Assembly: GCA_021735655.1 (NCBI GenBank)
Contig: JAIPGM010000003.1
Location: forward strand, 1 to 64,000
DNA: 64,000 nt
Source: Candidatus Omnitrophota bacterium
Lineage (GTDB): Bacteria; Omnitrophota; Gorgyraeia; Duberdicusellales; 4484-171
Reading direction: 5' to 3'
The notes below the pieces were generated by a model that saw only the letters and a list, made by a program, of their open reading frames with translations, did not search any database and had not been told where the DNA came from. Numbering within the stretch: the stretch's first letter is position 1; every line of letters starts with the position of its first letter. Made by a program: the position numbers and the translations under genes. This document shows positions 7,391 to 31,612 of the stretch, piece by piece.

Positions 7391-8887
7391 ATGATGTCAT
7401 TGGATCTAGTATTAGTAAATCCGAGTAGTAAAAAGCAGATGTATGGCAGTTTAAGCGATAGCTTAATCGGTATTGAACCACCAATATGGACAGCTTTGAT
7501 CGCTGCCTTTGTGCGCCGGAAAGGTTTTTCGGTAGCGATAATTGATGCTGTAGCTGAAGGTTTGGGCCCAACAGAAGTTTTTAATAGAATAAGGGAGTAT
7601 AACCCAAGAGTTATCGGCCTTGCTGCGATTGGAGCTAATCCTTCGGCGGCATCAACACCAAAAATGCTTGCTGTAAGAAGTCTATTGAATTTAATTCAAG
7701 AGAATAATTTTGATTCCAAGACCGTTCTTTACGGTATTCATCCTTCGGCTTTAGCCGAAGAAACCCTCAGAGAGGAGAAGATTGATTTCGTAATTAAAGG
7801 AGAAGCTTTTTATCCAATTTTAAATATTTTAAAAGAAACAAAATCGCAAGATATAGACGATTTATCGTTTAATAAGGGCATTTGTTATCTTCGGGATAAA
7901 AAGTTTATTTCTGGCGGTTGGGCTAAAGTAGTTGAGAATTTAGATGAATTACCCTTCGCAGCTTGGGATCTTTTACCGATGGATAAGTATCGAGCTCATA
8001 ATTGGCATTGTTTTGGCCATATAAGACAACGTTCTCCTTATGCCATAATTTACACTAGTTTTGGCTGCCCTTTCGATTGTAAATATTGTAATATTCATAG
8101 TCTTTACGGTGGTTCTCCGGGCATACGTTATCGTAGCCCTGAAAAGGTGGTCGAGGAAATCGATTTTCTAGTGAAAAATTATAATATTAAGCATTTAAAA
8201 ATACTTGATGAGCTTTTTGTTTCAGAAAAATCTAGGGTCGATAGATTTTGTGATCTGCTTATTAAACGTAACTACCGAATAAATATATGGGCTTATGCCA
8301 GAGTTGATACGGTTAATGAATTATTGCTAAAAAAATTAAAACAAGCTGGAGTAAATTGGATTTGCTATGGGTTCGAGGCAGCTAGCAAAAAAGTCCGGGA
8401 CGGCGTATCTAAGGGTAGGTTTGACCAGGAAGCTATTTATGAAGCTGCTCGTATAACTCATGATGCCGGGATTCATATAATCGGTAATTTTATGTTTGGT
8501 CTTCCTGATGATGATCAACAATCTATGCAAGAAACATTAAATTTAGCTAAAAAGTTACGTTGCGAATACGTGAACTTTTATACTACCATGGCTTATCCTG
8601 GTTCAAAGCTTTATCAAGAAGCAATAAAGCAGAAAAAGCAACTTCCGAAAAGCTGGTCAGGGTACTCTCAGTTTAGTTACGAAACTTTACCTTTGCCAAC
8701 AAAATATCTTTCTAGTGCCGAAGTTCTAAGCTTTAGAGACCGAGCTTTCGTGGATTATTATAGCGATCCCGAGTATAGCGCTATGATTAAAGAAGTTTTT
8801 GGCGAGGATACAGTTGAGCATATAAAAGATATGCTTAAATATAAATTAAAAAGGAAGCTGTTGGAAACTGAAGGAGTAAAGACATGA
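7391..8887 (+). CDS. B12-binding domain radical SAM protein (class B methyltransferase-like)
   Basis: N-terminal cobalamin-binding-like region, then CPFDCKYC (CxxxCxxC) near residue 225. 498 aa. Confidence 0.75.
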   Translation: MMSLDLVLVNPSSKKQMYGSLSDSLIGIEPPIWTALIAAFVRRKGFSVAIIDAVAEGLGPTEVFNRIREYNPRVIGLAAIGANPSAASTPKMLAVRSLLNLIQENNFDSKTVLYGIHPSALAEETLREEKIDFVIKGEAFYPILNILKETKSQDIDDLSFNKGICYLRDKKFISGGWAKVVENLDELPFAAWDLLPMDKYRAHNWHCFGHIRQRSPYAIIYTSFGCPFDCKYCNIHSLYGGSPGIRYRSPEKVVEEIDFLVKNYNIKHLKILDELFVSEKSRVDRFCDLLIKRNYRINIWAYARVDTVNELLLKKLKQAGVNWICYGFEAASKKVRDGVSKGRFDQEAIYEAARITHDAGIHIIGNFMFGLPDDDQQSMQETLNLAKKLRCEYVNFYTTMAYPGSKLYQEAIKQKKQLPKSWSGYSQFSYETLPLPTKYLSSAEVLSFRDRAFVDYYSDPEYSAMIKEVFGEDTVEHIKDMLKYKLKRKLLETEGVKT

Positions 8888-9954
8888 TTATTAGCAGAAC
8901 TCCGTTTAGAATATCTTTTTTTGGTGGTGGAACAGATTACCCGGTATGGTACAGGGAAAATGGTGGAGCAGTTATCTCAGCTTCGATAAATAAATATTGT
9001 TATATAACCTGTCGTTACTTGCCGCCATTTTTTGATTATAAATATAGAATAGTTTATTCGCAACGCGAGGCTGTAAAAAGCCTTTCCGATATAAAGCATC
9101 CCTCGGTTCGGGAGTGTTTAAATTTTATGAATTTAGGTAAAGGCGTTGAAATACATCATGATGGAGATCTGCCGGCTAGAACCGGTCTTGGTTCGAGTTC
9201 AGCTTTTACGGTAGGCTTGCTAAATGCTTTGTATGCTTTAAAGGGCAAGATGGTAACTAAAAAGCAGTTGGCGCTTGAAGCTATCCATGTTGAGCAAGAA
9301 AGAATTAAAGAGCATGTTGGTTCTCAAGACCAAACTATTGCCGCTTTTGGTGGATTTAACAAGATTACTTTTGCTCGGGATAATAATATTGAGGTTCAAC
9401 CGGTGACTTTACATTTTGAGAAATTAAAACACCTACAAAGACACTTAATGTTATTTTTTACTGGATTCTCTCGTACGGCTTCTGAAATTGCCCAAGAGCA
9501 AATAAATCAAACGCCTAATAGAACAAAGGAATTAGGTAACATGCATGATATGGTTTATGCCGCTATGGATATTTTAAACAGCAATCACGAAGATTTTAGT
9601 GATTTTGGTAAATTACTTAATGAAAGCTGGAAGATAAAAAGAAGCTTAACTTCTAAAATTTCAACGCCATTGATTGACCAGATTTATGAAACTGCTATGT
9701 GGGCCGGGGCAAAGGGTGGAAAAATTCTAGGGGCCGGCGGCGGCGGATTTATTTTATTTTTTGTTAATCCAGAATTTCAGCAAAAAGTAAGGCTAGCCCT
9801 TAAGAATCTTCTTTATGTTCCTTTTCGTTTTGATACCTTGGGTAGTCAAATAGTTTATTATGCTCCGGATCATCAATCTTGGTCAGATTCGAGTAAAGAT
9901 ATTTTAGCGGCTGAAGAAATTATTAGCAATGAGTCAACAGTAATTGAGAAATGA
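8884..9954 (+). CDS. GHMP-family sugar kinase (D,D-heptose 7-phosphate kinase HddA-like)
   Basis: RTPFRISFFGGGTDYP N-terminus and PARTGLGSSSA GHMP motif. Confidence 0.7.
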   Translation: MIISRTPFRISFFGGGTDYPVWYRENGGAVISASINKYCYITCRYLPPFFDYKYRIVYSQREAVKSLSDIKHPSVRECLNFMNLGKGVEIHHDGDLPARTGLGSSSAFTVGLLNALYALKGKMVTKKQLALEAIHVEQERIKEHVGSQDQTIAAFGGFNKITFARDNNIEVQPVTLHFEKLKHLQRHLMLFFTGFSRTASEIAQEQINQTPNRTKELGNMHDMVYAAMDILNSNHEDFSDFGKLLNESWKIKRSLTSKISTPLIDQIYETAMWAGAKGGKILGAGGGGFILFFVNPEFQQKVRLALKNLLYVPFRFDTLGSQIVYYAPDHQSWSDSSKDILAAEEIISNESTVIEK

Positions 9955-10658
9955 ATATTTTAAAATCTATAGATGTGGTTGTTCTTTGTGGTGGAAAAGG
10001 TGAGAGGTTACAATCAGTTTTAGGAGAAAAACCCAAAGTTTTAGTTGAAGTTTCTGGAAGGCCTTTCTTATCTATTCTAATTGACAATTTTAGGAAATTT
10101 GGTTTTAACCGTTTCATTTTAAGTGTGGGCTATAGACGGGATAAGATTATCGATTATTTTAAAGATAGAGCGGATATCTTTTTTTCTCAAGAGGAAATTG
10201 CTTTAGGAACCGGTGGCGGCTTAAAGAAAGCCGAAAGTTTAGTCAAAAGTAGTAGTTTTTTAGTTGTCAACGGCGACTCTTTCTGTGATTTAGATTTTAA
10301 TCGATTGTTTAGTTTTCACAGGGAAAAAAGAGCTATTTTAACTATGGCTTTGGTTAGAACCACAAAAGTTAAGGATTATGGAACTGTTACTATCGACAGC
10401 ACAGGAAAGATAAAAAGCTTTCAAGAAAAAGTGGAGGGGCTTAACTTTTGTTTAGCTAATGCTGGAATATATCTAATGGATAAAGAAATATTCAAGCAGA
10501 TGCCGCAAAAAAAAGTTTTTTCTTTAGAACGCGATTTATTTCCTAAAACAGAAAATAGCTTTGGCTTTGTAACAGAAGCTAAATTATATGATATCGGAAC
10601 GCCAGAGCGGTATGTTCAGGCTAAGGAGTTTTTTAACTGTAAAGGGGCCATGTCGTGA
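9951..10658 (+). CDS. sugar-1-phosphate nucleotidyltransferase (HddC-like)
   Basis: VVLCGGKGERL G-x-G-x-R motif. 235 aa, single-domain NTP transferase. Confidence 0.7.
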   Translation: MNILKSIDVVVLCGGKGERLQSVLGEKPKVLVEVSGRPFLSILIDNFRKFGFNRFILSVGYRRDKIIDYFKDRADIFFSQEEIALGTGGGLKKAESLVKSSSFLVVNGDSFCDLDFNRLFSFHREKRAILTMALVRTTKVKDYGTVTIDSTGKIKSFQEKVEGLNFCLANAGIYLMDKEIFKQMPQKKVFSLERDLFPKTENSFGFVTEAKLYDIGTPERYVQAKEFFNCKGAMS

Positions 10659-12100
10659 AAGTAATGTTATTGTTTCCAAAGTGGACTAGTGCTTATGGTT
10701 TATTTTCATATTTTGCTAAGAAGGCATCTCGCTGGCCACCTTTAAATCTAGCTTACATTGCGGCTGTAGCTGAAAATAACGGCCATATGGTAAAAATAGT
10801 TGATGGAGAGGCCGAAGATTTACCAACGGCAAAAATTTTGGAACGTATAAATGAGTTTAAGCCAGATATAATCGGCATGACTGCTACTACACCTTTTTTC
10901 CATGTAGTGGTTAAACTCGCTGAGGCGATTAAAGGGTTTAATAAAAGCATTCCGATAGCTATAGGCGGAGCGCATATAACTATTTTACAAAAGGAAGATT
11001 TTAATCTTTGTTTTGATTATGCCTTTCTTGGTGAAGCCGAAGAATCATGGGCTCAGTTTCTAGATAGATATGGTTCTGGGAAAGATATGTCAGACATAAA
11101 AGGCCTTCTTTATCGTAAAGGTGATGAGGTTGTTTGTACTGGTCTTTCTGAACCAATTAAGAATATTGATTCAATTCCTTATCCAGCGAGGCATTTACTA
11201 AAATTAGATAAATATAATATAGGCACTTTAAAAGGTGTAAAAAATTTTACGACTATTATGACAACTAGAGGTTGCCCGTTTGAATGTATATTTTGTAGCA
11301 CAAAAGTGTTCGGTTCCAGGATTCGTCGAAGGTCTTTGGATTCGGTAATGGATGAGATTAAATCAATAATTTATAATTTTAATATTAAACATTTTACCTT
11401 TTTGGATGACACTCTAACACTTGATAGAAATTATATTTTACAATTATGTAAGCGAATACAGGCCGAAGATTTTTCAATCACTTTTGATGGCAGTACTAGA
11501 GCTAATTTAGTGGATGATGAATTAATTGCTGAAATGGCTAAAGCAGGGCTAATAAGAATTTCTTTTGGTTTAGAATCAGTAGATCCTCGCATAAGAAAGA
11601 TTATTAAAAAAGAAGTGCCGCTTGAAAGTTATCAAAAGGCAAATCAAATAACTAATAAATATGGAATAGAGACGCTTAATTCAGTTATGCTTGGCTTACC
11701 AGGCGAAACAGCCGAAACTGTAGAAAGTACTCTGGGTTACTTACGTAATGCGCGTCATATTCAGCAAGCTAATCTTAGTATAGCCACTCCTTATCCAGGT
11801 ACGGAACTTTATCGGATGGCTAAAGAGGGGCAACACGGGTTACGGTTATTGACTGAAGATTTTTCAAGGTATCGTCGTTATGGATCAGCAGTTATGGAGG
11901 TGAATGAATTGTCGGCTCAAGATCTTATTGATTTACAAAACGACGGATTTCTTAGGATATATTCAGCTCCCTGGCGGATTATTCCAATGGTAAGAAAGAG
12001 TGGTATTTTAGGAGCATTGCTTACTTTTTCCAGACTGGCCAAGAAGATTAAAAGGCAGCTAAGGGTTAAGAAGGCAACAAAAGATAATAACAGCAATTAG
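10655..12100 (+). CDS. B12-binding domain radical SAM protein (second copy)
   Basis: TRGCPFECIFC CxxxCxxC motif after an N-terminal B12-binding-like domain. 481 aa. Confidence 0.75.
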   Translation: MKVMLLFPKWTSAYGLFSYFAKKASRWPPLNLAYIAAVAENNGHMVKIVDGEAEDLPTAKILERINEFKPDIIGMTATTPFFHVVVKLAEAIKGFNKSIPIAIGGAHITILQKEDFNLCFDYAFLGEAEESWAQFLDRYGSGKDMSDIKGLLYRKGDEVVCTGLSEPIKNIDSIPYPARHLLKLDKYNIGTLKGVKNFTTIMTTRGCPFECIFCSTKVFGSRIRRRSLDSVMDEIKSIIYNFNIKHFTFLDDTLTLDRNYILQLCKRIQAEDFSITFDGSTRANLVDDELIAEMAKAGLIRISFGLESVDPRIRKIIKKEVPLESYQKANQITNKYGIETLNSVMLGLPGETAETVESTLGYLRNARHIQQANLSIATPYPGTELYRMAKEGQHGLRLLTEDFSRYRRYGSAVMEVNELSAQDLIDLQNDGFLRIYSAPWRIIPMVRKSGILGALLTFSRLAKKIKRQLRVKKATKDNNSN

Positions 12101-15388: not shown

Positions 15389-17194
15389 ATGAAACACTTT
15401 AAGAATATTTTATTAAAAAATAAGGCTCTTGTAGTTGTTATTTTTATTTCTGGAATAATTGCTTCTTTCATGGAGGGATTAGGCTTAGGTTTAATTTTGC
15501 CTCTTTTAGAGGGGGTTAAGGGTAAGATGGCTTCGGGGGTTCCTTTTCCTTTCAGTATTATTTCAAATTTTTTTAGCACAATGGCTCTTGGAGAGAGAAT
15601 AAGATTAGTCGCATTTTTTTTAGTTATTATCACCCTCTTCAAGGGGGCAGCTTTTTACCTTAATACTTTATCAGTAACTCGTCTTCAGGTAGCGGCAATT
15701 AAGTATTATCGAATGAAGTGTTACGATCAGTTAATGAAGTTGGGCATGAGTTATCTTAATGGACAAAAAATGGGTCATTTGCAAACTATTGTTATTACTC
15801 ATACTGAGAGATTAGGTTCGTTAGTCAACATAGTTGCTAGTCTTGTTTTTAGAAGCTGTACTTTAATAATGCTTATGGTGATGTTGTTTATTTTATCTTG
15901 GAAGATGACCATGATTTCTCTTTTTATTGTTGTTTTTGCTTCAGTATTATTGCGCAAGATTGCCCAGCGGGCTGAAAAATCCGGTAAAAGGCTTACGGAG
16001 TCTATTAAAGAACTTAACCGAACAATTTTAGATACTCTTCTAGGGATGAAAATAATCCGTTTCTTTTGCCGTCAAAAAGACATGACTAGAGAGTTTCAGG
16101 CTAAAGTTGAAGATGTGAATAGGAACATGTATGCGCTTGCTAGGGCTCGACGGTCGCTTCAGCCTCTTTTTGAAACTTTAGGAGTAACAAGCTTTGCTTT
16201 AATTCTTTTAATCGGATCGTTTTTATTAATGTCAGAGAACAAGGGATTAGGCCTAGAGGTTGTTTTAACTTTTATTTTAATATTTTTTAGAATTCTTCCT
16301 CCGGCAATGGCTCTTAATGATGCTCGGGTAGGCATTAGAGGAGACTTACCCTATTATCGTCAAGCCCATCAGTTTATAGATAGTCAGGATAAGTCTTATT
16401 TATCCGGCGGGAGCAAAACAATCGAAAGATTATCTAAAAAAATTGAATTTCAAAATTTGGAATTTAGCTATAATCTTAAAGAGCTTATTGTTTTGAAAAA
16501 TTTATCATTTAGTATTCCTAAAGGTGCTAAAGTCGGAATCGTTGGCCATTCAGGATGCGGAAAATCTACAATTGTTGAGTTAATTTTACGTTTTTATGAT
16601 CCGCAAAAGGGAAATATTTTTATTGATGGTTTTGATTTAAAAGATTTGAATTTGAATTCTTGGCGTAGACTCGTGGGTGTTGTTTCTCAGGATACGTTTC
16701 TTTTTCATGACACTATCAGGGCTAATATTATCTTTGCTAAACCGGATTCTACTCAGCAAGAAATAGAATACGCAGCAAGAAAAGCGCATGCTTACGATTT
16801 CATTCAAAATTTACCTAAACGCTACGATACTCTAGTTGGTGAAAGAGGGGTGCTGCTGTCGGGTGGTCAAAGGCAAAGAATTGCTATTGCCCGGGCTATC
16901 ATCATGGATCCTGATATACTTATTTTTGACGAAGCAACTTCTAGCTTGGATACAGAGTCGGAAGGGATAGTCCAAAAGGCGCTTGATGAGGTTGGAGAGG
17001 GTAAGACAGTGATTACCATTGCTCATCGTCTTTCTACTATTTATGATTCGGATATAATTTTAGTTTTTGATTCTGGAGAAATAGTCCAACAAGGAACACA
17101 CCGAGAGCTAATTAAGCAGGGAGGCCTTTATGGCAAGTTAGTTAAGATGCAAACTATGGATGATTTAGAGCCTAAAAATATTTTTATAAGATGA
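15389..17194 (+). CDS. ABC transporter permease/ATPase, MsbA/PglK-like exporter
   Basis: N-terminal TM domain. Walker A GHSGCGKST, signature LSGGQRQRIAIARA, Walker B ILIFDEATSSLD. Confidence 0.85.
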   Translation: MKHFKNILLKNKALVVVIFISGIIASFMEGLGLGLILPLLEGVKGKMASGVPFPFSIISNFFSTMALGERIRLVAFFLVIITLFKGAAFYLNTLSVTRLQVAAIKYYRMKCYDQLMKLGMSYLNGQKMGHLQTIVITHTERLGSLVNIVASLVFRSCTLIMLMVMLFILSWKMTMISLFIVVFASVLLRKIAQRAEKSGKRLTESIKELNRTILDTLLGMKIIRFFCRQKDMTREFQAKVEDVNRNMYALARARRSLQPLFETLGVTSFALILLIGSFLLMSENKGLGLEVVLTFILIFFRILPPAMALNDARVGIRGDLPYYRQAHQFIDSQDKSYLSGGSKTIERLSKKIEFQNLEFSYNLKELIVLKNLSFSIPKGAKVGIVGHSGCGKSTIVELILRFYDPQKGNIFIDGFDLKDLNLNSWRRLVGVVSQDTFLFHDTIRANIIFAKPDSTQQEIEYAARKAHAYDFIQNLPKRYDTLVGERGVLLSGGQRQRIAIARAIIMDPDILIFDEATSSLDTESEGIVQKALDEVGEGKTVITIAHRLSTIYDSDIILVFDSGEIVQQGTHRELIKQGGLYGKLVKMQTMDDLEPKNIFIR

Positions 17195-19578
17195 GTGAAA
17201 AGAGAGCAATTATTCTTGGAGCCGGTGGAGTTGGCCTAATTTCAGCCTGGAAACTTCTCGAAGAGGGCTGGAGGGTTGATGTCTATGAAGCTACAGACCA
17301 GGTTGGTGGGATGTGTAAGACTTGGAAATGGGGAGAGTACTTATTAGATACGGGTCCACACATTTATCATACTCCTGATGAAAATTTATCTAAATTTTGG
17401 GAATCTGAATTTGGAGATTTATTTATTCAGCGTGAGTTTTGGTGTAAGAATGTTAAAGGCGATGATTTTAAGCAGTATTGGGACTATCCTTTATCTTGGG
17501 AGAGTATTTCTCGGTATCCTAAAGAGTTAAAAGATAAGGTTTTAGGAGAACTGCATAATATAAGCTTGCAAGGAAGAGCTAGAGCTACAAATTATACCGA
17601 ATATATGGATGCTCAAGTAGGGCCGACCTTGCGTGAGATGTTTTTTAAAAAGTTTCCGGAAAAGATTTGGGGTATTTCAACTAACCATATGGCTACTGAT
17701 TGGGCACCAAAAAGGATTGAGGTTCGTCAGAAGGTTACTCCTTTTTACCATAAACAGTGGAATGCTGTAGGTAAGTATGGGGCCGGTTGTATCTTTGAGC
17801 GAATAAAGGAGAAAGTTTTAACTCTTGGTGGAAATATTCATTTTAATCATATTGTAAGCGCTTTCGAATCGCAAGGAAATGCTATTTCGGCCATTGAGTT
17901 TTCAATAAAAAAGAGCAGGACAGTTTTCCCGGACGAAGTTATTATTTCTAGTTTAGCAATTACTGATTTGGCTAGATTTTTAGGTTATGAGAGTAAATTA
18001 GATTTTCGTGCTTTGCGTACCGTTTACCTAGCTTATGATAAAGAGATGATTCTGCCTAAAGGTATAGATTGGCTTTATTATGATTCGGAAAAAACTTACT
18101 TTAGCCGGATTACTGAACCCAAAAAACTTTCTCCTTACGTGTCTGCTAAAGATAAAACTTATCTTACTTTAGAGATAACTTGTTCTAAAGACGATGAAAT
18201 CTATAAGATGGAAGGAGAGAAGCTGGTAAAGAAAGTAGCTGAGCAAGTTGAGCTAGTAGGGTTAGCTAAGATTAGTGAGGTAGCTGCTTCAACCATTCAT
18301 AGCGAAGACCATGTGTATCCTATACAGCATCATGGCTACCAGGAAGAACTCTCTAAAACTCGCTCAGTGATTACCAGCTTTCAACAAATCTACTCTTTGG
18401 GAACTGGAGGAGAGTTTCACTATTCGGATATTCAAATTCTTTTTCATAAGGCTTTTGATTTGGTAGCGACACTTTGTAATAAGGGGTCAAACTTTACCCA
18501 AACTATTAGAAAAACTAAAGCTTGTCAGTTAAACTCGGTAGTTTCGATTAGAAATCGAGAGGTTGGTTTTGGCAGGCCAGCCTATATAATTGCTGAAGCT
18601 GGATTAAATCATAATGGCAGCATAGAAGTGGCTAAACAACTTATTGATCGGGCTAAAGAATCTGGAGCAGACGCGATTAAATTTCAAACTTTTAAGCCGG
18701 GAAGCCGAATATCTAAAAAGGTAAAGGCTGCTCGTTATGCCGAAACTATAATTGGCTTAGAAGAGACCCTTTACGACATGTTTGATCGTCTGGCTATGGG
18801 GCATGATGATCAAAAAGATCTTTTTAACTATGCTCGAAAGAGTGGTATTGAAATTTTCTCAACTCCTTTTGACCTTGAAAGTGCTGAGTTTTTAAATAGT
18901 TTGGGAGTAGGTGTTTTTAAAATAGCTTCGATGGATCTAGTAAGCTTACCTTTTATTAAGCAGGTGGCTAGAATGGGTAAGCCAATGATTCTTTCAACTG
19001 GCATGTCGACTTTGGGTCAGGTTGAAGAGGCTTTAGAGGTGATTCGTCAGCAAGACAATCCTAACGTGATGCTACTTCATTGTAACTCTTCTTACCCTGC
19101 AGCCCAGGAAGAAATGAATTTGCAGGTTATTGAGACTCTCAAGAAATGTTTTAAGGTTCCGGTGGGACTGTCTGATCATACTTTTGGTTTATTTGTATCA
19201 CACACAGCTCTTGTGTTGGGTGCGGATTTAATTGAAAGGCATTTTACTTTAGATCGAGCCATGGAAGGACCAGACCATATTTTATCTTCAGCGCCAGCAG
19301 AGCTAGCTGAGCTAGTTTCAATGTCAAAGAAAATACCCGAAGTTTTAGGCGATGGTATTAAAAGGATTCAGCCTAATGAATATGATACTTTAAACACGCA
19401 AAGAAAAAGTCTTTATGCAGCTTGCGATATTAAAAAAGGAACGGTGATTACACAAGGGATGGTTGCGATTAAAGGTCCTGGTGGAGGGCTTTTACCGAAA
19501 TATTTTGATTTGGTTGCTGGGCGCATCGCCAAAGTTGACATTGAAGAAGATCATCCAATCACTTGGGAGGCTATTTGA
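17191..19578 (+). CDS. fusion protein: N-terminal FAD-dependent oxidoreductase (UDP-galactopyranose mutase-like) + C-terminal NeuB-type ulosonic acid synthase
   Basis: N-term: IILGAGGVGL...YEATDQVGGMC...GPHIYHT...KKFPEKIWG. C-term: AYIIAEAGLNHNGS...DAIKFQTFK plus SAF-like AIKGPGGGL. 795 aa. Confidence 0.7.
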   Translation: MSEKRAIILGAGGVGLISAWKLLEEGWRVDVYEATDQVGGMCKTWKWGEYLLDTGPHIYHTPDENLSKFWESEFGDLFIQREFWCKNVKGDDFKQYWDYPLSWESISRYPKELKDKVLGELHNISLQGRARATNYTEYMDAQVGPTLREMFFKKFPEKIWGISTNHMATDWAPKRIEVRQKVTPFYHKQWNAVGKYGAGCIFERIKEKVLTLGGNIHFNHIVSAFESQGNAISAIEFSIKKSRTVFPDEVIISSLAITDLARFLGYESKLDFRALRTVYLAYDKEMILPKGIDWLYYDSEKTYFSRITEPKKLSPYVSAKDKTYLTLEITCSKDDEIYKMEGEKLVKKVAEQVELVGLAKISEVAASTIHSEDHVYPIQHHGYQEELSKTRSVITSFQQIYSLGTGGEFHYSDIQILFHKAFDLVATLCNKGSNFTQTIRKTKACQLNSVVSIRNREVGFGRPAYIIAEAGLNHNGSIEVAKQLIDRAKESGADAIKFQTFKPGSRISKKVKAARYAETIIGLEETLYDMFDRLAMGHDDQKDLFNYARKSGIEIFSTPFDLESAEFLNSLGVGVFKIASMDLVSLPFIKQVARMGKPMILSTGMSTLGQVEEALEVIRQQDNPNVMLLHCNSSYPAAQEEMNLQVIETLKKCFKVPVGLSDHTFGLFVSHTALVLGADLIERHFTLDRAMEGPDHILSSAPAELAELVSMSKKIPEVLGDGIKRIQPNEYDTLNTQRKSLYAACDIKKGTVITQGMVAIKGPGGGLLPKYFDLVAGRIAKVDIEEDHPITWEAI

Positions 19579-19579
19579 T

Positions 19580-20656
19580 ATGAGCTATACAAGGCAAGCC
19601 AGAGACTTATTGAAGGTAATATTGAATTTAGCTAAAGCCGAAAACAAACTTTCTGGATTTTGCATTAGTAATACTGCCAAGATAGACAAGCAAGGCCTTT
19701 ATTTCACGCCAGTGAGGAATACGCCTAGAATGGTAATTGCTGGAGTCGTTGTCTATAGTGAAAAACAAGCCATAGAGATAGCTGAGATAGTTGATGGGAA
19801 GGTTGACTACATTTTAGTCGATGCTGAAAAGAAAGTTTCTGGAGAAATGTCTGTAAGTGGTGTAGCGGCTAATGTTGAGCGTTCAGTGCGTGAAATTTTA
19901 ACCAAATCTAAATTATGGGTTTATAAGGGTAATGACTTAGCAGTGGAGGCTTTAGATAGTTTACTTTCTTATTTGACTAAGGATTCTTTAAGAGGTGTTG
20001 GCGCGAAAAAGATAGCGATTATCGGGGCGGGCAATTTAGGCTGTAAATTAGCACTTAAATTAGTGGAAAGGGGTGCTCATGTTTTCATAACACGAAGGGA
20101 TAGAGATAAGGTTGCTAGCATAGCCAGAGTTCTTAATTACATTAAACCTAGATATACTAACGCTGAGGTAGTGGGTACTGTTGACAATGAGGCCGCAGCC
20201 AAAAATGCTGACATTTTAATTGGGATGACTCAAGGGATACCGGTTATTACCGAAAAGATCATAGCCAACCTTTCGACTCAGGCCTTGATTATCGATGGAG
20301 GCAAAGGAACTTTTTATCCTGCGGCTATCAAGATGGCTCGGGAGCGCGGCATTGAAATCTATAGACTGGATGTAAGTTCAGCCTTTGAGGGCGCAATAGC
20401 TACTCTTTTTTCTCTGGAAGATGCTATGAAAAATCGAATTGGCCGGCGCTTACTCTATGGTGAACCAATAGTTGCCGGAGGCTTAATGGGAAGGGAGGGC
20501 GATGTGGTGGTGGACAGCATTTTTGAACCTAAAATAATCTATGGTATCGCCAACGGTAAGGGAGATTTCATTCGTAATCCCTCAAGCGAGCAATTGGTCA
20601 GAATAGAAAAAGTTAAGAAGGCGATATCTTTAGAGTTATCTGCAAAGGTAAGTTAA
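19580..20656 (+). CDS. NAD(P)-binding oxidoreductase (shikimate dehydrogenase / glutamyl-tRNA reductase-like fold)
   Basis: KKIAIIGAGNLGCKLALKLVERGAHVFITRRD Rossmann motif and downstream ADILIGMTQG. The start is taken at ATG 19580 (GGAGG RBS at 19567-19571) rather than the overlapping upstream ATG at 19463. Confidence 0.45.
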   Translation: MSYTRQARDLLKVILNLAKAENKLSGFCISNTAKIDKQGLYFTPVRNTPRMVIAGVVVYSEKQAIEIAEIVDGKVDYILVDAEKKVSGEMSVSGVAANVERSVREILTKSKLWVYKGNDLAVEALDSLLSYLTKDSLRGVGAKKIAIIGAGNLGCKLALKLVERGAHVFITRRDRDKVASIARVLNYIKPRYTNAEVVGTVDNEAAAKNADILIGMTQGIPVITEKIIANLSTQALIIDGGKGTFYPAAIKMARERGIEIYRLDVSSAFEGAIATLFSLEDAMKNRIGRRLLYGEPIVAGGLMGREGDVVVDSIFEPKIIYGIANGKGDFIRNPSSEQLVRIEKVKKAISLELSAKVS

Positions 20657-20659: not shown

Positions 20660-22423
20660 ATGAATAAATTATATGAAAATTTGCTACCTAAAAATGGATA
20701 TGTAATTGGCGAGCTTGCTTGTGGCCACGAAGGTGATTTTAAGAAGTTAAAGCAACTCATCGAGGCCGTAGCTGTAAGTGGAGCAGATGGCGTCAAATTT
20801 CAAATTTTTATTCCTCAAGAAAGAGCGAACAAAGATCATCATGAGTGGGATATTTTTAATAAGCTGGCGATTTCAGAAGAGGATTGGAAGGCAGCTGCAA
20901 ATTATGCCCGCCAAAAGAAGTTAGCAGTATTTGCCGATATTTTTGGCGAGGCTAGTTTTCAAATAGCAAAAAGAATTGGTGTCGATGGATTTAAAATACA
21001 TTCAGAAGATTTGCTCAATACTTTTTTTATCAGCCGAGTTGCTCAGGAAAATAAAATTCTTATGATCGGAGTAGGCGGGGCACATCGTATCGAGATCTAT
21101 CAATTACTTAATTATTTGAAAACCCAAGGATTAGTTGAAAATCTATTATTAACTACTGGAGTACAGACCTTTCCTACTCCGCTAGAAGTACATTTTTTAC
21201 AAGAGGTCAGCGATCTTCTTTCTTGTTATAGTTCTTTCGGTGTTAAGCTGGCCTTCGCCGATCATATTTCTGGTGATTTAGAAGAGGCCAAAATCGTACC
21301 CTTGATGGCTTTGGCTAAGGGGGCTGCAGTTATTGAGAAGCATGTTACCATTAACAGAGATGATGAGTGGGAGGATTATCAGTCGGCTTTAAGCAAAGAG
21401 GTCTTTGGCGATTTTGTTAAACAACTAAAAAAACTTTCACCGCTTCTAAAAGAACTAGGGCCACAAACCCCATTTGAGATCCAATACCGGAAAATATTTA
21501 AGAAGACTCCGGTAGCGGCAATAGATTTAGAATCTGGTCAGCTGATTAAGCCGGAGCATATCAAATATGTTAAGCATGCAAAGCATGCAGTCCCTCTTTC
21601 GGCTTTAAATCTTGTAGGTAGGCAATGCAAAAATAATCTAAGCAAGGGGCAGGTTTTACGCCTTAAGGATATTAAGGTTAAAGTTGGCGGGATTATCGTA
21701 GCCCGGTGTAGCTCTAATCGTCTTCCTAGCAAAGCCACAAGAAAAATTTTGGAGCGCGAGACAATAGCTTTACTTATTGAGCGAATCAAGCGCTGTCGCA
21801 ACCTTGATTGTGTGGTTTTAGCTACTTCGACTGATCCTTCTGATGATGTATTGGAGGAAATCGCCAAACGAGAAGGCGTCCTTCCTTTTAGAGGATCTTT
21901 AGAGAACCTTTCTTTGCGTTTTTATCAGGCAGCTAAACATTACAATATCGATCATATCGTTAGAGTTACCGGAGATGACATTATTCGTGACGAAGTGATG
22001 ATTGATAAAATCGTAGAAAGCCATTTATTTAACTCTTCGGAAGTCACTTTTGCCGATAATATGCCTTACGGGACAGTGAGTGATGTTTTTAGCTTAAATG
22101 CTATAGAAACGATATTAAATACAGCCCAGGTCCCTGAGAACACCGAATATTTAGAATGGTATTTAGGTAACAGCCGTTATTTTAGCATTAATTATGTTAA
22201 ATCTGACTATGAATTTAACCCGAGGTGGAGGCTTACTTTAGATTACGAAGAAGACTTTCTTTTTTTTAAGGAAATCTTCGAGTGTTTTTATGGCCATAAG
22301 CCTGATTTTACTTTAGCTGATGTTTTAAAATTGTTAGCCGACCAGCCACAAATAGCCGAGATTAATATGGCTAAGACCGCTAAATATACTAAAAACGATA
22401 TTAACGTTAAATTAACTATATAG
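20660..22423 (+). CDS. fusion protein: SpsE/NeuB-like TIM-barrel domain + SpsF-like cytidylyltransferase domain
   Basis: N-term: YVIGELACGHEGD...GADGVKFQIF (a divergent NeuB motif). C-term: GGIIVARCSSNRLPSKAT and DCVVLATSTDPSDD, typical of the SpsF/CTP-transferase family. Confidence 0.65.
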   Translation: MNKLYENLLPKNGYVIGELACGHEGDFKKLKQLIEAVAVSGADGVKFQIFIPQERANKDHHEWDIFNKLAISEEDWKAAANYARQKKLAVFADIFGEASFQIAKRIGVDGFKIHSEDLLNTFFISRVAQENKILMIGVGGAHRIEIYQLLNYLKTQGLVENLLLTTGVQTFPTPLEVHFLQEVSDLLSCYSSFGVKLAFADHISGDLEEAKIVPLMALAKGAAVIEKHVTINRDDEWEDYQSALSKEVFGDFVKQLKKLSPLLKELGPQTPFEIQYRKIFKKTPVAAIDLESGQLIKPEHIKYVKHAKHAVPLSALNLVGRQCKNNLSKGQVLRLKDIKVKVGGIIVARCSSNRLPSKATRKILERETIALLIERIKRCRNLDCVVLATSTDPSDDVLEEIAKREGVLPFRGSLENLSLRFYQAAKHYNIDHIVRVTGDDIIRDEVMIDKIVESHLFNSSEVTFADNMPYGTVSDVFSLNAIETILNTAQVPENTEYLEWYLGNSRYFSINYVKSDYEFNPRWRLTLDYEEDFLFFKEIFECFYGHKPDFTLADVLKLLADQPQIAEINMAKTAKYTKNDINVKLTI

Positions 22424-22432: not shown

Positions 22433-23605
22433 ATGACAAAATTATGGCGAATTGATCAGAAAGAAGTAGATTTAATAAAAGAGGTCGTGGATAAAGGTTT
22501 TTCTGGAGAGTCTATTGAGTTGTTTGAGAAGCAATTTGCTAAAAAATTCGGGATTAACTATGCGATTGCTGTTAATTCCGGAACTTCAGCTCTTCATGTG
22601 GCAGTTTCTGCCATAGGTGTTTCAGCTGGAGATGAAGTTATTGTTCCGCCATTAACTTTTGCTGCTACTGGTTTTGCGCCTATGTACTTAGGGGCCAAAC
22701 CGGTATTCGCCGATGTTGATCATTCTACCTTTAATATTGATCCAGACTCGATCGTAAAAAAGATAACCGATAAGACAAAGGCTATTATTACTGTTTCTTT
22801 ATATGGGTTACCGCCGGATATGGATAGAATCATGGCTATAGCTAAAGAGCATAATTTGAAAGTTATCGAAGATAACGCTCAGTGTGTATTTGGTAAATAT
22901 AAAGGGAAAATTGCCGGAACAATCGGCGATATTTCTATATTTAGTTTTCAACGTAGCAAGCACTTAACTACCGGTGACGGAGGAATGATTATTACTAACG
23001 ATGAAAATCTAGCCGAAACAGCCAGAAAATTCAGCGATTTAGGTTATGTTACTCTCAAGGCTTCTTCTGGTACTCATTTGGTGTCTAAAGAGTCTTTGCA
23101 ACAGCCAAATTTTAAGCGTCATGAGTCTTTTGGCTATAATTTTCGTCTGCCGGAAGTTTGTGCAGCCATGGGTCTTGCTCAATTGGAGAAGCTGGATTAT
23201 TTGGTGGCTAAAAGAGTTGCTATCGCTCAGCTATATGAGAAGGCGATTGGGGATTGTGATTGGCTTATTCCTCAGAAGGTTCCTGAAGGGGTAATTAGTT
23301 CTTACTGGACTTATGTTTTAAGGTTGGATTCGGCCAAAAAGAATGTTACATGGAAGCAGTTTAGGGAAGTTTTCTTAAAAGAGGGCGGTGAGCCATTTTA
23401 CGGGGCTTGGAGACTTACTTATCTTGAACCAGTTTTTGGAAAGATAAAGCTTTCGGATAATAGTATGCAGTATTCATCCGGATTATGTCCAGTTGCAGAA
23501 TCAATACAGCCTTATTTGATTCAGCTTAAAACAAATTTTGAAAATTTAGATTACGCTAAAAAACAGGCCGATGTTCTAGCTAGGACAGTTAAGTTGTTAG
23601 ATTAA
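22433..23605 (+). CDS. DegT/DnrJ/EryC1/StrS family PLP-dependent sugar aminotransferase
   Basis: AVNSGTSALHVA and FSFQRSKHLTTGDGG, with the catalytic Lys present. Confidence 0.8.
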   Translation: MTKLWRIDQKEVDLIKEVVDKGFSGESIELFEKQFAKKFGINYAIAVNSGTSALHVAVSAIGVSAGDEVIVPPLTFAATGFAPMYLGAKPVFADVDHSTFNIDPDSIVKKITDKTKAIITVSLYGLPPDMDRIMAIAKEHNLKVIEDNAQCVFGKYKGKIAGTIGDISIFSFQRSKHLTTGDGGMIITNDENLAETARKFSDLGYVTLKASSGTHLVSKESLQQPNFKRHESFGYNFRLPEVCAAMGLAQLEKLDYLVAKRVAIAQLYEKAIGDCDWLIPQKVPEGVISSYWTYVLRLDSAKKNVTWKQFREVFLKEGGEPFYGAWRLTYLEPVFGKIKLSDNSMQYSSGLCPVAESIQPYLIQLKTNFENLDYAKKQADVLARTVKLLD

Positions 23606-23607: not shown

Positions 23608-24894
23608 ATGAATATGAATAAAAGAATACTGATGTTTTGCGGTAATGGCTATACATTTGATGAAGCTTTTGGGCCAATCATAGAGGAGATAGGCAAAAGC
23701 TTCAAGGTGGATCTTTTGATGGGTAGTTATTATTTTACTGATCGCGTTTTAAATTCTGTCAAGCGCCTACATTCAAAGGGCAGAATAGATACTTATAAAA
23801 TTATACATGCTCATAGAAGAAAACAGTCGAACTTTGGGTATCATAAAGAAATAAAGTTAATTATGGAGTCAATTAAAGATAAGGATTTCAGTCTTTTACT
23901 TTCAGGGGGTGATTTCGATATATTTAATAGATATCTTATTAGTGTGGCAAGGGCAAAAGGAGCGAATATAGCCATTATACAAGGATGTCAGCTGGTTCAT
24001 TTGCTTGCTAAATATCGAAAAATGAACAGATTAAATTTGTCTCGTAACGATTATTGCAAACAAAAGAAAAATGATATAAATGGCAGAAAGTATAGAGGTT
24101 TGAGATATCAGCTCGGTATGATTAAGCATGGTGCTCTGCGTTCCTTAAAGGTTATTAATAGTCATTACATTACTCCTTTTTTAGTTAGTGGTAAGTTTTT
24201 TGTTCCTAGTAGGTACGACAAGTTTAATTTTACTTCAGGGCGGGCTGATATAGTGATGTGTTATGATTCTTTAGAGATAACAGCTCTAAAAAGTATGATT
24301 CCAAAGGTAAAAAACATCCACCTTGTTAAACATCCTGTCCATGGCCAGTGTAAGTGCAAGGGGAGTTTAAATATAGAATTAGGAAGAAAATTATTGGTGG
24401 TTTTTTCTGGTAATATTGGAAGTGAGCTGGAAAAATATAAGTTTGAACGTTGGGTCGGCGTGATCAAGAAAGCAATAGACTTAGAAAACATAGCCGAAAT
24501 TCATTTAAGATTCCATCCTCGAACTTCATCAGCGCTCCATTGGCCAAGAAAAATGGCTAAGTCTATTAAAGATCTGGGGTGTGAAGTTAAAATTATTGAT
24601 GCTTTGAAAACTTCACTTGTTGAAACGGTGTGTAATTATGTAGGAATACTAGGAGCTCCTTCGGGGGCATTACGTGCAGCAAGGGCTGTGTGTCCAAGAG
24701 TTTTTGTAACTGCCTTGCCTGACTGTGGTGATCCTGAACCATTTGAGCAAGAGTGGTGTTTGGGTAAGGCAGAGGGAATTAATTGGATTAAAAAAGATGA
24801 AGAACTAGAGCCAAAGAATTTAGAGATTTCGGAATTTAATATGGACAACAGACTTTCGGTTGCAGATATTTTGTGTAAAACATTAGAAAAATAG
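23608..24894 (+). CDS. hypothetical protein (possibly a GT-B-like glycosyltransferase)
   Basis: 428 aa with no motif I recognise. The C-terminal half has GT-B-like character (VVFSGNIG...ILGAPSGAL). Confidence 0.3.
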   Translation: MNMNKRILMFCGNGYTFDEAFGPIIEEIGKSFKVDLLMGSYYFTDRVLNSVKRLHSKGRIDTYKIIHAHRRKQSNFGYHKEIKLIMESIKDKDFSLLLSGGDFDIFNRYLISVARAKGANIAIIQGCQLVHLLAKYRKMNRLNLSRNDYCKQKKNDINGRKYRGLRYQLGMIKHGALRSLKVINSHYITPFLVSGKFFVPSRYDKFNFTSGRADIVMCYDSLEITALKSMIPKVKNIHLVKHPVHGQCKCKGSLNIELGRKLLVVFSGNIGSELEKYKFERWVGVIKKAIDLENIAEIHLRFHPRTSSALHWPRKMAKSIKDLGCEVKIIDALKTSLVETVCNYVGILGAPSGALRAARAVCPRVFVTALPDCGDPEPFEQEWCLGKAEGINWIKKDEELEPKNLEISEFNMDNRLSVADILCKTLEK

Positions 24895-31597: not shown

Positions 31598-31612
31598 AAT
31601 AAAAGCAGGGTA

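Follow-up and report, generated by a model that had tools for sequence, protein, structure and literature searches.

A 64,000-nucleotide stretch of Candidatus Omnitrophota DNA (the window) encodes a single protein in which a flavodomain related to UDP-galactopyranose mutase (UGM, or Glf) precedes a NeuB-type ulosonic-acid synthase. As judged from the sequences of its homologs, this fusion is a genuine and strongly conserved enzyme, with a range that extends from SAR11 bacteria of the ocean to archaea. It very likely forms the bifunctional core of a conserved pathway that yields a CMP-activated acid of the ulosonic (sialic-acid-like) type. We are equally confident that the two halves make up one enzyme of one pathway with an ulosonic-acid product, in which the flavodomain acts on that pathway's nucleotide-sugar. 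The product is probably a sialic-acid-like surface sugar not yet known, made by an undescribed route. As to the reaction itself, we tentatively favor an unmasking, in which displacement at flavin N5 followed by iminium hydrolysis would turn the nucleotide-sugar into a free aldose, in open-chain form, that NeuB can use.

Architecture and conservation of the fusion

The fusion gene is an uninterrupted open reading frame (17191..19578, + strand) that starts with ATG and encodes 795 amino acids in the order UGM-like flavodomain, linker, NeuB domain and SAF domain. The first-pass annotation of the window had placed Glf-like, NeuB and SAF parts in this one gene, and the translation bears this out. 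It contains the motifs IILGAGGVGL, YEATDQVGGMC, GPHIYHT, KKFPEKIWG, AYIIAEAGLNHNGS and KFQTFK, and Pfam assigns NAD_binding_8 to residues 8–71 (50.6 bits), GLF to residues 151–344 (35.0 bits against a gathering cutoff of 26.3), NeuB to residues 484–724 (291 bits) and SAF to residues 739–793 (38 bits). The domains and the neighboring genes are as follows.

15389..17194, + strand: MsbA/HepA-like ABC exporter, fused permease and ATPase (Pfam ABC_membrane and ABC_tran)
17191..18525, + strand: FAD-binding UGM-like flavodomain, residues 1–445 (NAD_binding_8, GLF, UGM matches in the PDB, Foldseek)
18526..18585, + strand: interdomain linker, residues 446–465, the least conserved segment of the fusion
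18586..19380, + strand: NeuB-type PEP-condensing TIM-barrel domain, residues 466–730 (Pfam NeuB, complete catalytic set)
19381..19578, + strand: SAF/antifreeze-like domain, residues 731–795 plus stop (Pfam SAF)
19580..20656, + strand: two-domain NAD(P)-dependent dehydrogenase, 358 amino acids, directly downstream of the fusion
20660..22423, + strand: NeuB*-CTP, a divergent NeuB-SAF fused to a CMP-type cytidylyltransferase (Pfam NeuB, 113 bits, with SAF and CTP_transf_3)
22433..23605, + strand: DegT/PseC/LegC-type PLP aminotransferase (Pfam DegT_DnrJ_EryC1, 305 bits)
23608..24894, + strand: 428-amino-acid protein, family not assigned, recurring near the fusion in some genomes

The mean top-residue frequency is 0.58 in the linker, compared with 0.73–0.80 in the domains of the fusion, and residues 433–443, directly ahead of the linker, have pLDDT values below 50 and are predicted to be disordered. 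The AF2 model leaves the interdomain geometry undefined (pTM 0.57), so that channeling between the domains, as the annotation had envisaged, is without structural support.

An assembly or sequencing chimera is ruled out by at least 120 near-full-length homologs among the matches listed (at least 95% query coverage, 58–87% identity), which come from independent assemblies, and by the recovery of 75 fusion loci from named genomes, among them the complete Arcobacter iocasae KX21116 chromosome. About 25 deeper clusters of fusions extend down to 29% identity. Carriers include SAR11, SAR116, SAR86, Prochlorococcus, CPR bacteria and archaea, and cultured ones are found in Arcobacter, Rheinheimera and Halobacteriovorax. 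The search for the same architecture in other genomes, which the annotation had recommended, thus found it widely. The term "unusual" used there is apt in that the enzyme is unstudied, and we found no description of it in the literature; its distribution, however, indicates that the fusion is widespread and ancient. Among 120 sequences, 20% of the positions in the flavodomain and 28% of those in the NeuB domain are at least 98% invariant, a pattern indicating that purifying selection acts on both halves.

Active sites of the two halves

The best sequence matches of the flavodomain among solved structures (PDB sequences) are all UGMs (E = 7e-9). UGMs are also among its best fold matches in Foldseek (TM 0.75 to T. 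cruzi UGM), but protoporphyrinogen oxidase likewise reaches TM 0.75, and the fold search cannot separate the two. Invariant in 66 close sequences are G10/G12/G15, E33, G55-P56-H57, H60, W160, R175, Y186, R273, R306, Y376, Y411 and D413. This set aligns to H60, H63, W160, R174, Y185, R250, R280, Y314, Y349 and D351 of Klebsiella UGM, which are the residues contacting the nucleotide-sugar. Because the best solved-structure matches are all UGMs and the nucleotide-sugar-binding residues are invariant, we assign the flavodomain by sequence to the Glf/UGM relatives, in agreement with the annotation, and not to a generic amine-oxidase fold. In 26 long representatives, one of which (P0221) is a non-fusion protein, the UGM-type positions are kept in 25–26, with the exception of Y186, whose position is variable (F11, Y9, H4, W1). 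The Arg equivalent to Klebsiella R343 is absent from all fusions, which carry an active-site signature of their own: no Arg at 405, Asp413 and Gln415.

Conserved binding residues, combined with loss of the R343 equivalent (an Arg in nearly all unfused relatives), might be expected of a non-catalytic flavodomain that binds a nucleotide-sugar and regulates NeuB. We regard such a sensor as very improbable, given that invariance extends to the FAD-binding motif and to the His loop, located at flavin N5 in UGMs, and that the flavodomain is about as conserved as the catalytic NeuB domain.

In the NeuB domain, E469, K497, Q499, T558, K577, S580, S602, Y635, S661, H663, E682, H684 and D695 align to N. 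meningitidis NeuB E25, K53, Q55, T110, K129, S132, S154, Y186, S213, H215, E234, H236 and D247, respectively, and the catalytic, PEP-binding and metal-binding residues are retained in 25 divergent fusions. The NCBIfam scores are 373.5 bits for TIGR03569 (NeuB) and 309.3 bits for the PseI model, under the respective cutoffs of 399.65 and 340.25. The sugar-binding β2–α2 loop is remodeled, with four residues inserted at the N74 loop and R506 and E518 conserved, and the Phe288 pocket of NeuB is replaced by Q-R/K-K in the fusions. In the SAF domain, where K761-G762-P763 is invariant, Gly762 lies opposite N. meningitidis Arg314 in the alignment to 1xuu; in the 25 divergent fusions this position is never Arg (G8, S7, A6, P3, T1). 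Arg314 touches the acetyl carbonyl of a ManNAc analog, and the loop Asn touches its C6-OH (PMC11339185). Since this acetyl-reading Arg is missing, the sugar used by the NeuB domain would not be a ManNAc-type 2-acetamido sugar. Animal synthases whose substrate is a sugar phosphate likewise lack Arg314 and have an altered β2–α2 loop (PMC11339185, PMC8208679).

Gene content across the fusion loci

The dehydrogenase lies directly 3′ of the fusion gene in 59 of 63 loci, and in a triple fusion (P0142) it is joined to the fusion in one protein; it is an obligate partner, which the first-pass annotation had missed. The enzyme in the window is probably NADPH-dependent, judging from T-R-R after the second Rossmann strand. 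TTG 19463 was rejected as its start in favor of ATG 19580.

Such an obligate NAD(P)-binding neighbor, sometimes fused, could also be the electron partner of a flavodomain that works as a dehydrogenase or oxidase, for instance by introducing or altering a carbonyl group in the sugar or acid. Amine oxidases, protoporphyrinogen oxidases and desaturases share the fold, and the missing R343-equivalent Arg could alter flavin behavior. We nevertheless consider a redox role unlikely: the UGM residues that hold the nucleotide diphosphate and place C1 at N5 are invariant in close sequences (Y186 varies in the long representatives), matches to oxidase and desaturase families are confined to the first 40–80 residues, the FAD-binding Rossmann part, and the partner resembles not a flavin reductase but a substrate-specific dehydrogenase of two domains.

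Other frequent neighbors are a CTP_transf_3 of some kind (51/63), a DegT or class III aminotransferase (37/63) and an SDR (35/63). NeuB*-CTP fusions occur in 15 of the 63 loci; the one in the window has lost PEP-binding residues (T110→D, S154→G, S213→A) and kept the metal ligands, and its cytidylyltransferase presumably activates the pathway product. The aminotransferase in the window scores about 241 bits with PseC and LegC-family models, under cutoff. The 428-amino-acid protein has no match in Pfam, NCBIfam or the PDB, and homologs of about 440 amino acids are present in nine fusion loci. The upstream MsbA-like exporter reported by the annotation is indeed present, its stop sharing 4 nt (ATGA) with the start of the fusion. 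In NCBIfam it scores best with HepA_fam_ABC (466 bits) and with MsbA (412 bits), although neither score reaches its cutoff. As 32 of 63 loci have a homolog no more than 10 kb from the fusion, it is a frequent but not an obligate partner. RmlA-like genes occur in 12 loci, RmlB-like genes in 14 and any NTP_transferase in 22 of 63, and a NeuC-like gene in only one related locus. No hydrolase-like or phosphatase-like family is among the neighbor families present in at least five fusion loci, and no glycosyltransferase family is consistently adjacent. Elsewhere in the window, a canonical NeuC (30431-31597) adjoins the canonical NeuB.

In an unfused sister family, the neighbors are GT2 glycosyltransferases and NDP-sugar genes, with no NeuB, a classic mutase context. 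Together with the conserved UGM residues, this would suit an ordinary NDP-pyranose/furanose mutase serving another glycan residue, with NeuB joined for co-expression or complex formation and no metabolite passed. Such independence seems to us improbable, because the fusion, its active-site signature and the co-varying loss of Arg314 persist in bacteria and archaea alike at identities as low as 29%, and no particular glycosyltransferase family is a constant neighbor. Without functional coupling of the domains, persistence of this kind would be difficult to account for.

Proposed route and known systems

In the unmasking route that we tentatively favor, the N-terminal domain would bind FAD and a nucleotide-sugar in the manner of UGM, as its residues suggest. 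The UGM mechanism runs via an N5 adduct and an open-chain iminium (PMC7662398); by homology, N5 of the reduced flavin would displace the nucleotide at C1, and the ring would open to a flavin iminium. Without furanose re-closure or nucleotide recapture, the iminium would then be hydrolyzed, freeing an open-chain aldehyde aldose, an unprecedented step that would stand in for the NeuC, LegG or PseG hydrolases of known pathways. To our knowledge, no UGM homolog hydrolyzes its iminium, and the step is thus a conjecture. The fused NeuB domain, its catalytic residues intact, would condense the aldehyde with PEP to a 3-deoxy-2-ulosonic acid. The dehydrogenase, often with the SDR and the aminotransferase, may tailor this acid by keto-reduction or by oxidation and then transamination; alternatively, it may keep the flavin reduced. 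Gene content suggests that CTP_transf_3 would supply the CMP-sugar to glycosyltransferases and that the glycan would often leave via the MsbA-like exporter.

The annotation had instead imagined a furanose or oxidized intermediate channeled into the condensation. We favor release of an open-chain aldose because NeuC-type hydrolyzing epimerases are essentially absent from the loci, no other hydrolase-like family recurs among the conserved neighbors and NeuB has lost the N-acetyl-reading Arg; furanose channeling is not the most economical scheme, since a released free furanose would re-equilibrate. Unmasking is further favored by the conserved UGM-type active site with frequently adjacent nucleotide-sugar genes, by a NeuB domain that is catalytically complete, lacks Arg314 and has a remodeled β2–α2 loop, by the pathway partners (dehydrogenase, CTP_transf_3, SDR and aminotransferase), and by the lack of an alternative free-aldose source in the conserved gene content. 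UGM-family mutases accept NDP-6-deoxyhexoses, the products of Rml-type genes (PMC12369002). Against unmasking, Rml-type genes are neighbors in only about one-fifth of the loci and are in any case frequent in glycan gene clusters. The fold search does not split UGM from protoporphyrinogen oxidase, the R343-equivalent Arg is missing, and the AF2 model gives the domains no defined arrangement.

The changes at Arg314 and in the β2–α2 loop, being shared with the animal synthases, raise the prospect that the aldose comes from central metabolism, and the cytidylyltransferase is the sole nearly constant nucleotide-sugar-forming enzyme, so that the pathway's CMP-sugar is an equally possible substrate of the flavodomain. 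NeuB would then start from a free sugar or a sugar phosphate of central metabolism, and, once the acid had been tailored and activated with CMP, the flavodomain would contract the CMP-ulosonate from pyranose to furanose before transfer, keeping the reaction type known for its family (PMC7662398); loss of the N-acetyl-reading Arg implies a free 5-OH, as a furanose ring needs. This order of events is less probable in our view, though the most credible of the alternatives. Flavin N5 attack on a carboxylate-bearing tertiary anomeric carbon is unprecedented. The paired Arg and the Tyr residues of UGM suit a diphosphate, but CMP-sugars carry only one phosphate. In addition, the neighborhood has no conserved phosphatase, and the fusion would link the opening and closing steps of the pathway instead of two consecutive ones.

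UGM/Glf and the FADH2-dependent NDP-pyranose/furanose mutases, such as C. jejuni HS41.17, which acts on CDP-6-deoxyhexoses (PMC12369002), have the same fold as the flavodomain. UGM shares with it the FAD Rossmann motif, the Gly-Pro-His loop, the base-stacking Trp, the Arg pair, the diphosphate-holding Tyr residues and, presumably, reduced flavin N5 as nucleophile. Identity is about 20%, however, and TIGR00031 gives 38.9 bits against a cutoff of 303.75; only the flavodomain lacks Arg at the Klebsiella R343 position and is fused to a PEP-condensing synthase. While UGM forms an NDP-furanose, the likely outcome here is sugar release or action on a CMP-ketose. The closest sequence family consists of unfused PRK07208-type "FAD-dependent oxidoreductase / protoporphyrinogen oxidase" proteins of 420–490 amino acids (NF005547 matches the fusion with 193.7 bits over residues 3–417). 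These are 25–37% identical, have a UGM-like residue set and occur in polysaccharide loci, but have Arg at 405, mostly Asn at 413 and no NeuB domain or neighbor.

The NeuB/LegI/PseI synthases (N. meningitidis NeuB, 1xuu; C. jejuni PseI, 8h2c) share the TIM barrel and SAF domain at 31–35% identity, with all metal ligands, the catalytic Glu and PEP-binding residues. The fusion differs from them in falling under the NCBIfam equivalog cutoffs, in having Gly, Ser, Ala, Pro or Thr for the essential SAF Arg314, and in its added N-terminal flavodomain and 4-residue β2–α2 insertion with conserved Arg and Glu. NeuC and LegG (hydrolyzing UDP/GDP-GlcNAc-type 2-epimerases) and PseG (a UDP-sugar hydrolase) free an aldose from its nucleotide for a NeuB-type synthase. 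The analogy that we propose to the flavodomain is functional only, as there is no sequence or fold relationship, and flavin-iminium hydrolysis would contrast with their glycal formation and hydration or direct hydrolysis. Finally, the Leptospira NeuB-phosphatase (PMC3438082) and the NeuB-cytidylyltransferase of the window (20660-22423) resemble the fusion in joining a NeuB-type domain to an enzyme of the same pathway, but their partner domains act after condensation and, unlike that of the fusion, neither is a flavoprotein.

The flavoprotein–NeuB fusion and its hosts

The open reading frame at 17191-19578 on the plus strand is uninterrupted and encodes 795 residues, and every motif quoted in the first-pass annotation was found in its translation. 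That annotation had read the protein as a flavoprotein domain joined to a NeuB synthase with a C-terminal SAF domain, an architecture borne out by Pfam, which assigned four domains.

Pfam domains of the fusion protein
Residues 8-71: NAD_binding_8
Residues 151-344: GLF (PF03275), 35.0 bits, gathering cutoff 26.3
Residues 484-724: NeuB (PF03102), 291 bits, above cutoff
Residues 739-793: SAF, 38 bits, above cutoff

We searched 5.8 billion proteins with a word-indexed method and obtained at least 120 homologues of 755-815 aa, 58-87% identical to the fusion at 95% query coverage or more, whose sources are numerous independent assemblies and phyla. With the flavodomain (residues 1-445) as the query, an exhaustive HMMER search added 25 further representatives of 50%-identity clusters, of about 780-830 aa and down to 29% identity, which we used as the set of divergent fusions; unfused relatives of 420-490 aa first appeared at about 37% identity and predominated at 25-30%. 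The long representatives number 26 when P0221 is included, which is not a fusion: this protein of 812 aa has an unrelated N-terminal part of 324 residues, then the flavodomain (325-760), without a NeuB domain.

Scanning one genome per GTDB species yielded 75 fusion loci. Their hosts include Pelagibacteraceae (SAR11), SAR116, SAR86, a Prochlorococcus single-cell genome, Magnetococcales, Nitrospirota, Planctomycetes, Elusimicrobia, several CPR phyla and Nitrososphaerales archaea, as well as the cultured Arcobacter iocasae KX21116 (complete chromosome) and Rheinheimera sp. YQF-1; a further cultured host, Halobacteriovorax sp. HLS, came from the word-indexed protein search. The architecture is thus widely found in other genomes, and the assembly chimera that had been raised as an alternative is ruled out by homologues from independent assemblies and by the 75 loci in named genomes. 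Among plasmid and phage annotated records, only matches to the NeuB half were found and no full-length fusion. One copy, 64% identical, lies on a 13-kb MAG contig (CAMCZP010000076.1) labelled Leptospira interrogans serovar Manilae, a label that may reflect binning rather than true origin.

Positions at least 98% invariant among the 120 homologues make up 20% of the flavodomain and 28% of the NeuB domain, and the linker between the two is the least conserved segment. The AF2 model left the interdomain arrangement undefined (pTM 0.57). Fusion monophyly had a support of only 45/100 in a neighbor-joining tree of NeuB domains from which P0221 was removed, too low a value for us to claim a single origin of the fusion.

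The two halves compared with UGM and NeuB

The best NCBIfam fit of the flavodomain was the uncharacterised PRK07208 group (193.7 bits, residues 3-417); the score against the Glf equivalog TIGR00031 was 38.9 bits, with a cutoff of 303.75. Since the Pfam GLF model is matched above its cutoff while TIGR00031 falls far below, the flavodomain is, as judged from these models, a member of the UDP-galactopyranose mutase (UGM) superfamily but not a Glf orthologue. The closest solved structures by sequence were all UGMs, with E-values from 7e-9. Foldseek gave a TM of 0.75 to Trypanosoma cruzi UGM and an equal TM of 0.75 to protoporphyrinogen oxidases, so that fold alone is not decisive and the question is settled at the level of residues. 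A generic amine-oxidase domain was ruled out by the extent of the matches: oxidase and desaturase models cover the first 40-80 residues only, whereas UGM matches reach residue 185-230 or farther and take in the residues that contact the substrate. The Glf relationship claimed earlier for the N-terminal half therefore holds; the earlier interpretation as a whole is supported in part. A redox role for the flavodomain is, in our estimate, improbable.

Like UGMs, the flavodomain has the FAD-binding GxGxxG, the acidic residue that ends β2, the Gly-Pro-His loop, which presumably lies next to flavin N5, and the nucleotide-diphosphate binding set (Klebsiella W160, R174, Y185, R280, Y314 and Y349).

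Positions of the fusion protein aligned to Klebsiella UGM
G55-P56-H57: G58-P59-H60
H60: H63
W160: W160
R175: R174
Y186: Y185
R273: R250
R306: R280
Y376: Y314
Y411: Y349
D413: D351

All of these positions, whose UGM counterparts hold the nucleotide diphosphate and place sugar C1 at flavin N5, were invariant in 66 close homologues, as was the FAD Rossmann set (G10, G12, G15, E33 and G39-G40). Apart from Y186, where divergent representatives have Phe, Tyr, His or Trp, the aligned positions, the Rossmann set and the Gly-Pro-His loop were kept in 25 or 26 of the 26 long representatives, the non-fusion P0221 among them. That the flavodomain is regulatory strikes us as very improbable.

A difference from Klebsiella UGM lies in the C-terminal G-R-x-x-x-Y-x-Y-x-D motif, whose Arg (R343) is Thr405 in the window protein. 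Fusions have A, T, S or C here and in no case Arg, whereas 89 of 93 unfused relatives have Arg. Because the position splits fused from unfused proteins, and because Asp413 and Gln415 are common to fusions, the flavodomain stands apart on sequence grounds as a branch of its own within the UGM superfamily, built for nucleotide-sugar binding. Its unfused sister family, itself uncharacterised, sits among glycosyltransferases and NDP-sugar genes, without NeuB. The reading in which the flavodomain is a metabolically independent mutase is, to our mind, improbable as well.

The NeuB domain scored below the equivalog cutoffs of both NeuB_NnaB (TIGR03569; 373.5 against 399.65) and PseI (TIGR03586; 309.3 against 340.25); the stand-alone NeuB encoded at 29391-30434 in the window passes its equivalog cutoff with 465.9 bits. 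As in NeuB-type synthases, the metal-binding, catalytic and PEP-binding set is complete. By alignment to Neisseria meningitidis NeuB, the metal ligands H663 and H684 (His215 and His236), the catalytic E469 and E682 (Glu25 and Glu234) and the PEP-binding K497, T558, K577, S580, S602 and S661 (Lys53, Thr110, Lys129, Ser132, Ser154 and Ser213) are intact, and so are D695 and Y635. All of these residues are kept in the 25 divergent fusions, in which T558 is Thr, Ser or Ala.

By contrast with NeuB-type synthases, three sugar-recognition elements are consistently altered in the fusions: Arg314, Asn74 of the β2-α2 loop and the Phe288 pocket. Arg314 corresponds to Gly762 in the window protein and to G, S, A, P or T, never Arg, in the divergent fusions; the canonical NeuB paralogue in the window keeps it as R313. 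Four residues are inserted in the β2-α2 loop, where R506 and E518 are conserved and Asn74 aligns to Glu518 or Gly522 depending on the alignment. In place of the Phe288 pocket stands a conserved Q-(R/K)-K motif. In N. meningitidis NeuB, Arg314 is in contact with the acetyl carbonyl of a ManNAc analogue; it is completely conserved in bacterial enzymes with a SAF domain and is absent from animal Neu5Ac-9-phosphate synthase, and the loop Asn contacts the C6-OH of ManNAc (PMC11339185). PDB entries for the R314A and R314K mutants were among the structural matches. Given that the catalytic set is complete and the N-acetyl reader Arg314 is replaced, the NeuB domain is predicted to be active in PEP condensation, with an aldose other than a 2-acetamido sugar of the ManNAc type. 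Each half of the fusion fails at least one defining feature of its characterised family, UGM or NeuB.

Gene neighbourhood and the dehydrogenase partner

The window is one long glycan locus with nearly all large ORFs on the plus strand, and the genes around the fusion are tightly packed.

Genes around the fusion
15389-17194, plus strand: MsbA-like ABC exporter, overlapping the fusion start by 4 nt (ATGA)
17191-19578, plus strand: fusion
19580-20656, plus strand: dehydrogenase, starting 1 nt past the fusion stop codon
20660-22423, plus strand: NeuB*-cytidylyltransferase
22433-23605, plus strand: DegT aminotransferase
23608-24894, plus strand: 428-aa protein of unknown family, without a match in a sequence search of solved structures

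The ORF call of the dehydrogenase begins at TTG 19463, inside the fusion gene; ATG 19580 is indicated as the true start by homologues of about 350-360 aa and an upstream GGAGG. We counted neighbours in 63 related loci, each 9 kb or longer, some of which are near-duplicates (L002-L004).

Neighbours of the fusion in 63 related loci
Dehydrogenase: 59 (within 60 nt in 47; same strand in 57)
Any CTP_transf_3 cytidylyltransferase, within 10 kb: 51
Any aminotransferase (DegT or class III): 37
PtmA-like SDR, often directly upstream of the fusion: 35
MsbA-like ABC exporter: 32
NTP_transferase: 22
Methyltransferase: 17
Aldo-keto reductase: 17

The typical operon of CPR bacteria, Arcobacter and SAR86 runs from the SDR through the fusion and the dehydrogenase to the cytidylyltransferase, with overlapping stop and start codons. 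RmlA-like genes adjoin the fusion in 12 loci and RmlB-like genes in 14. A NeuC-like gene was found in a single related locus (L012), and the sole NeuC in the window (30431-31597) adjoins the canonical NeuB, not the fusion. No phosphatase or other hydrolase-like family recurs among the fusion-neighbour families of the related loci.

The dehydrogenase has a nearly invariant T-R-R after its second Rossmann strand, a feature that points to NADPH; its sequence thus suggests that it uses this cofactor. Many invariant Lys and Arg residues in its N-terminal domain suggest, likewise, an anionic substrate. Searching solved structures with its sequence gave nothing useful outside the Rossmann part. In one homologue of 1141 aa (P0142) the two proteins form a triple fusion, with UGM-like, NeuB and SAF domains (1-791) followed by a ShikDH-like dehydrogenase (844-1129). 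We conclude that the fusion is a widespread, deeply conserved and unstudied flavoprotein–NeuB enzyme with an obligate dehydrogenase partner.

The NeuB*-cytidylyltransferase, a divergent NeuB-SAF domain joined to a cytidylyltransferase, has lost PEP-binding residues (T110 to D, S154 to G and S213 to A) and kept both metal ligands, so that for its NeuB* domain either a pseudo-enzyme or a new function is conceivable. In the NeuB-domain tree this domain makes up a robust clade by itself (100/100), and it co-occurs with the flavoprotein–NeuB fusion in 15 of the 63 loci.

A complete canonical legionaminic-acid-like module lies downstream of the fusion (27884-38381, plus strand). It comprises a cytidylyltransferase, a PtmA-like SDR, the equivalog-passing NeuB, a NeuC-like 2-epimerase, a PglD-like acetyltransferase, a CBS-NTP_transferase, a 4,6-dehydratase and a DegT aminotransferase, together with a HisF-like/HisH-like pair and a 399-aa protein without a Pfam match, which are possibly an acetamidino-forming set. 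At least two ulosonic-acid routes are therefore encoded side by side. Farther on (39449-42025, plus strand), another CTP_transf_3 gene precedes a 3-dehydroquinate-synthase-like gene and an SDR, a group that could be one more CMP-sugar or cyclitol-type sub-pathway.

Several other genes of the window stand out. The 655-aa product of a dTDP-glucose/GDP-mannose 4,6-dehydratase-type gene (1730-3697, plus strand), next to RmlA (142-1011) and RmlC (1013-1573), is apparently interrupted by an intein: residues 130-418, between two Epimerase/GDP_Man_Dehyd halves, match Intein_splicing with 31.9 bits, under the Pfam cutoff of 35.8. Unusual tailoring genes (4681-6451, 7391-12100 and 59383-62230, plus strand) encode a split transketolase pair, two B12-binding radical SAM enzymes flanking a GHMP kinase and an NTP-transferase, and an HMGL-like/DmpG aldolase adjoining a TPP enzyme; together they suggest C-branched or C-methylated sugars. 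A family of 510-630 aa without a Pfam match occurs near the fusion in archaeal and Halobacteriovorax-type loci (median gap 11 nt; 164 nt in L001), at about 2.1-4.5 kb in L002-L004, 8305-9837 in L001 and 8308-9873 in L006, and its member in the window is at 46029-47828 (plus strand). We regard this family as a candidate for the glycosyltransferase that transfers the new sugar.

A possible flavin-dependent route to ulosonic acids

All of the chemistry considered for the fusion is drawn from sequence, predicted structure and gene neighbourhood, from which we infer a pathway to a CMP-activated ulosonic acid. Since the flavodomain is the sole conserved component with nucleotide-sugar-binding features, it would be the supplier of free aldose to the NeuB domain. 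UGMs expel the nucleotide and open the sugar ring to an N5-iminium (PMC7662398). In the fusion, N5 of the reduced flavin would act in the same manner on a nucleotide-sugar, the iminium would be hydrolysed to the open-chain aldehyde, and the acyclic aldose would be handed directly to the fused NeuB domain. Hydrolysis would yield the aldehyde form that NeuB-type enzymes use and would give a reason for the fusion. The dehydrogenase, the SDR and the aminotransferase would tailor the acid afterwards. Alternatively, the dehydrogenase might keep the flavin reduced, which would be a real need because NADPH reduces bacterial UGMs about 10,000-fold more slowly than eukaryotic UGMs (PMC7662398). UGM-family enzymes accept NDP-6-deoxyhexoses produced by an NTP-transferase, a 4,6-dehydratase and a C4-reductase (PMC12369002), and genes of these kinds adjoin the fusion in some loci.

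We offer this unmasking of the aldose by the flavodomain as our preferred but tentative reading, somewhat less likely than not to be right. An alternative would place the flavodomain at the back end, contracting the ring of the CMP-ulosonate; the near-universal cytidylyltransferase of fusion loci speaks for it, as does the 5-OH, which would be free, and we nevertheless think it unlikely. Returning to aldose unmasking, the flavodomain, the fused NeuB domain, the dehydrogenase and the cytidylyltransferase might together form a fourth, flavin-dependent route to a non-2-acetamido ulosonic acid that decorates the surfaces of SAR11, SAR116, SAR86 and Prochlorococcus, which are among the Earth's most abundant microbes, and of CPR bacteria and ammonia-oxidising archaea, a proposal that we hold slightly more loosely still. 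We regard the fusion as the probable basis of a new route to a sialic-acid-like sugar.

Sialic-acid-like sugars affect phage attachment, grazing resistance, immune evasion and cell-surface charge, and the flavoprotein–NeuB family is conserved across bacteria and archaea, including lineages that dominate the ocean and have hardly described surface glycans. The proposed chemistry, if true, would account for the fusion of the two domains, and hydrolytic release of an open-chain sugar would be a new outcome among the few flavin-N5 covalent reactions. Should the chemistry differ in detail, the family would still be a well-defined target within reach of experiment, with cultured hosts and an operon of four or five genes, and might lead to a nonulosonic or ulosonic acid that is new, together with the CMP donor of this acid.

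We did not find a flavoprotein–NeuB or UGM–NeuB architecture described in the full-text literature searched, which covers subscription journals only in part, and a large NeuB phylogeny paper makes no mention of such a fusion. Two other NeuB fusions, one to a phosphatase in Leptospira and one to a cytidylyltransferase, differ from it in that no flavoprotein is involved. To our knowledge, every bacterial route known so far, be it to Neu5Ac, to legionaminic or pseudaminic acid or to a related acid, frees the precursor sugar by NeuC-type or PseG-type enzymes. The fusion loci resemble canonical Neu5Ac, legionaminic and pseudaminic modules in that most have a CMP-type cytidylyltransferase (CTP_transf_3) nearby, in the window the NeuB*-cytidylyltransferase, but differ from them in that, save for one locus, they have no NeuC-type sugar-releasing gene; the flavoprotein–NeuB family appears to define a different, flavin-dependent route.
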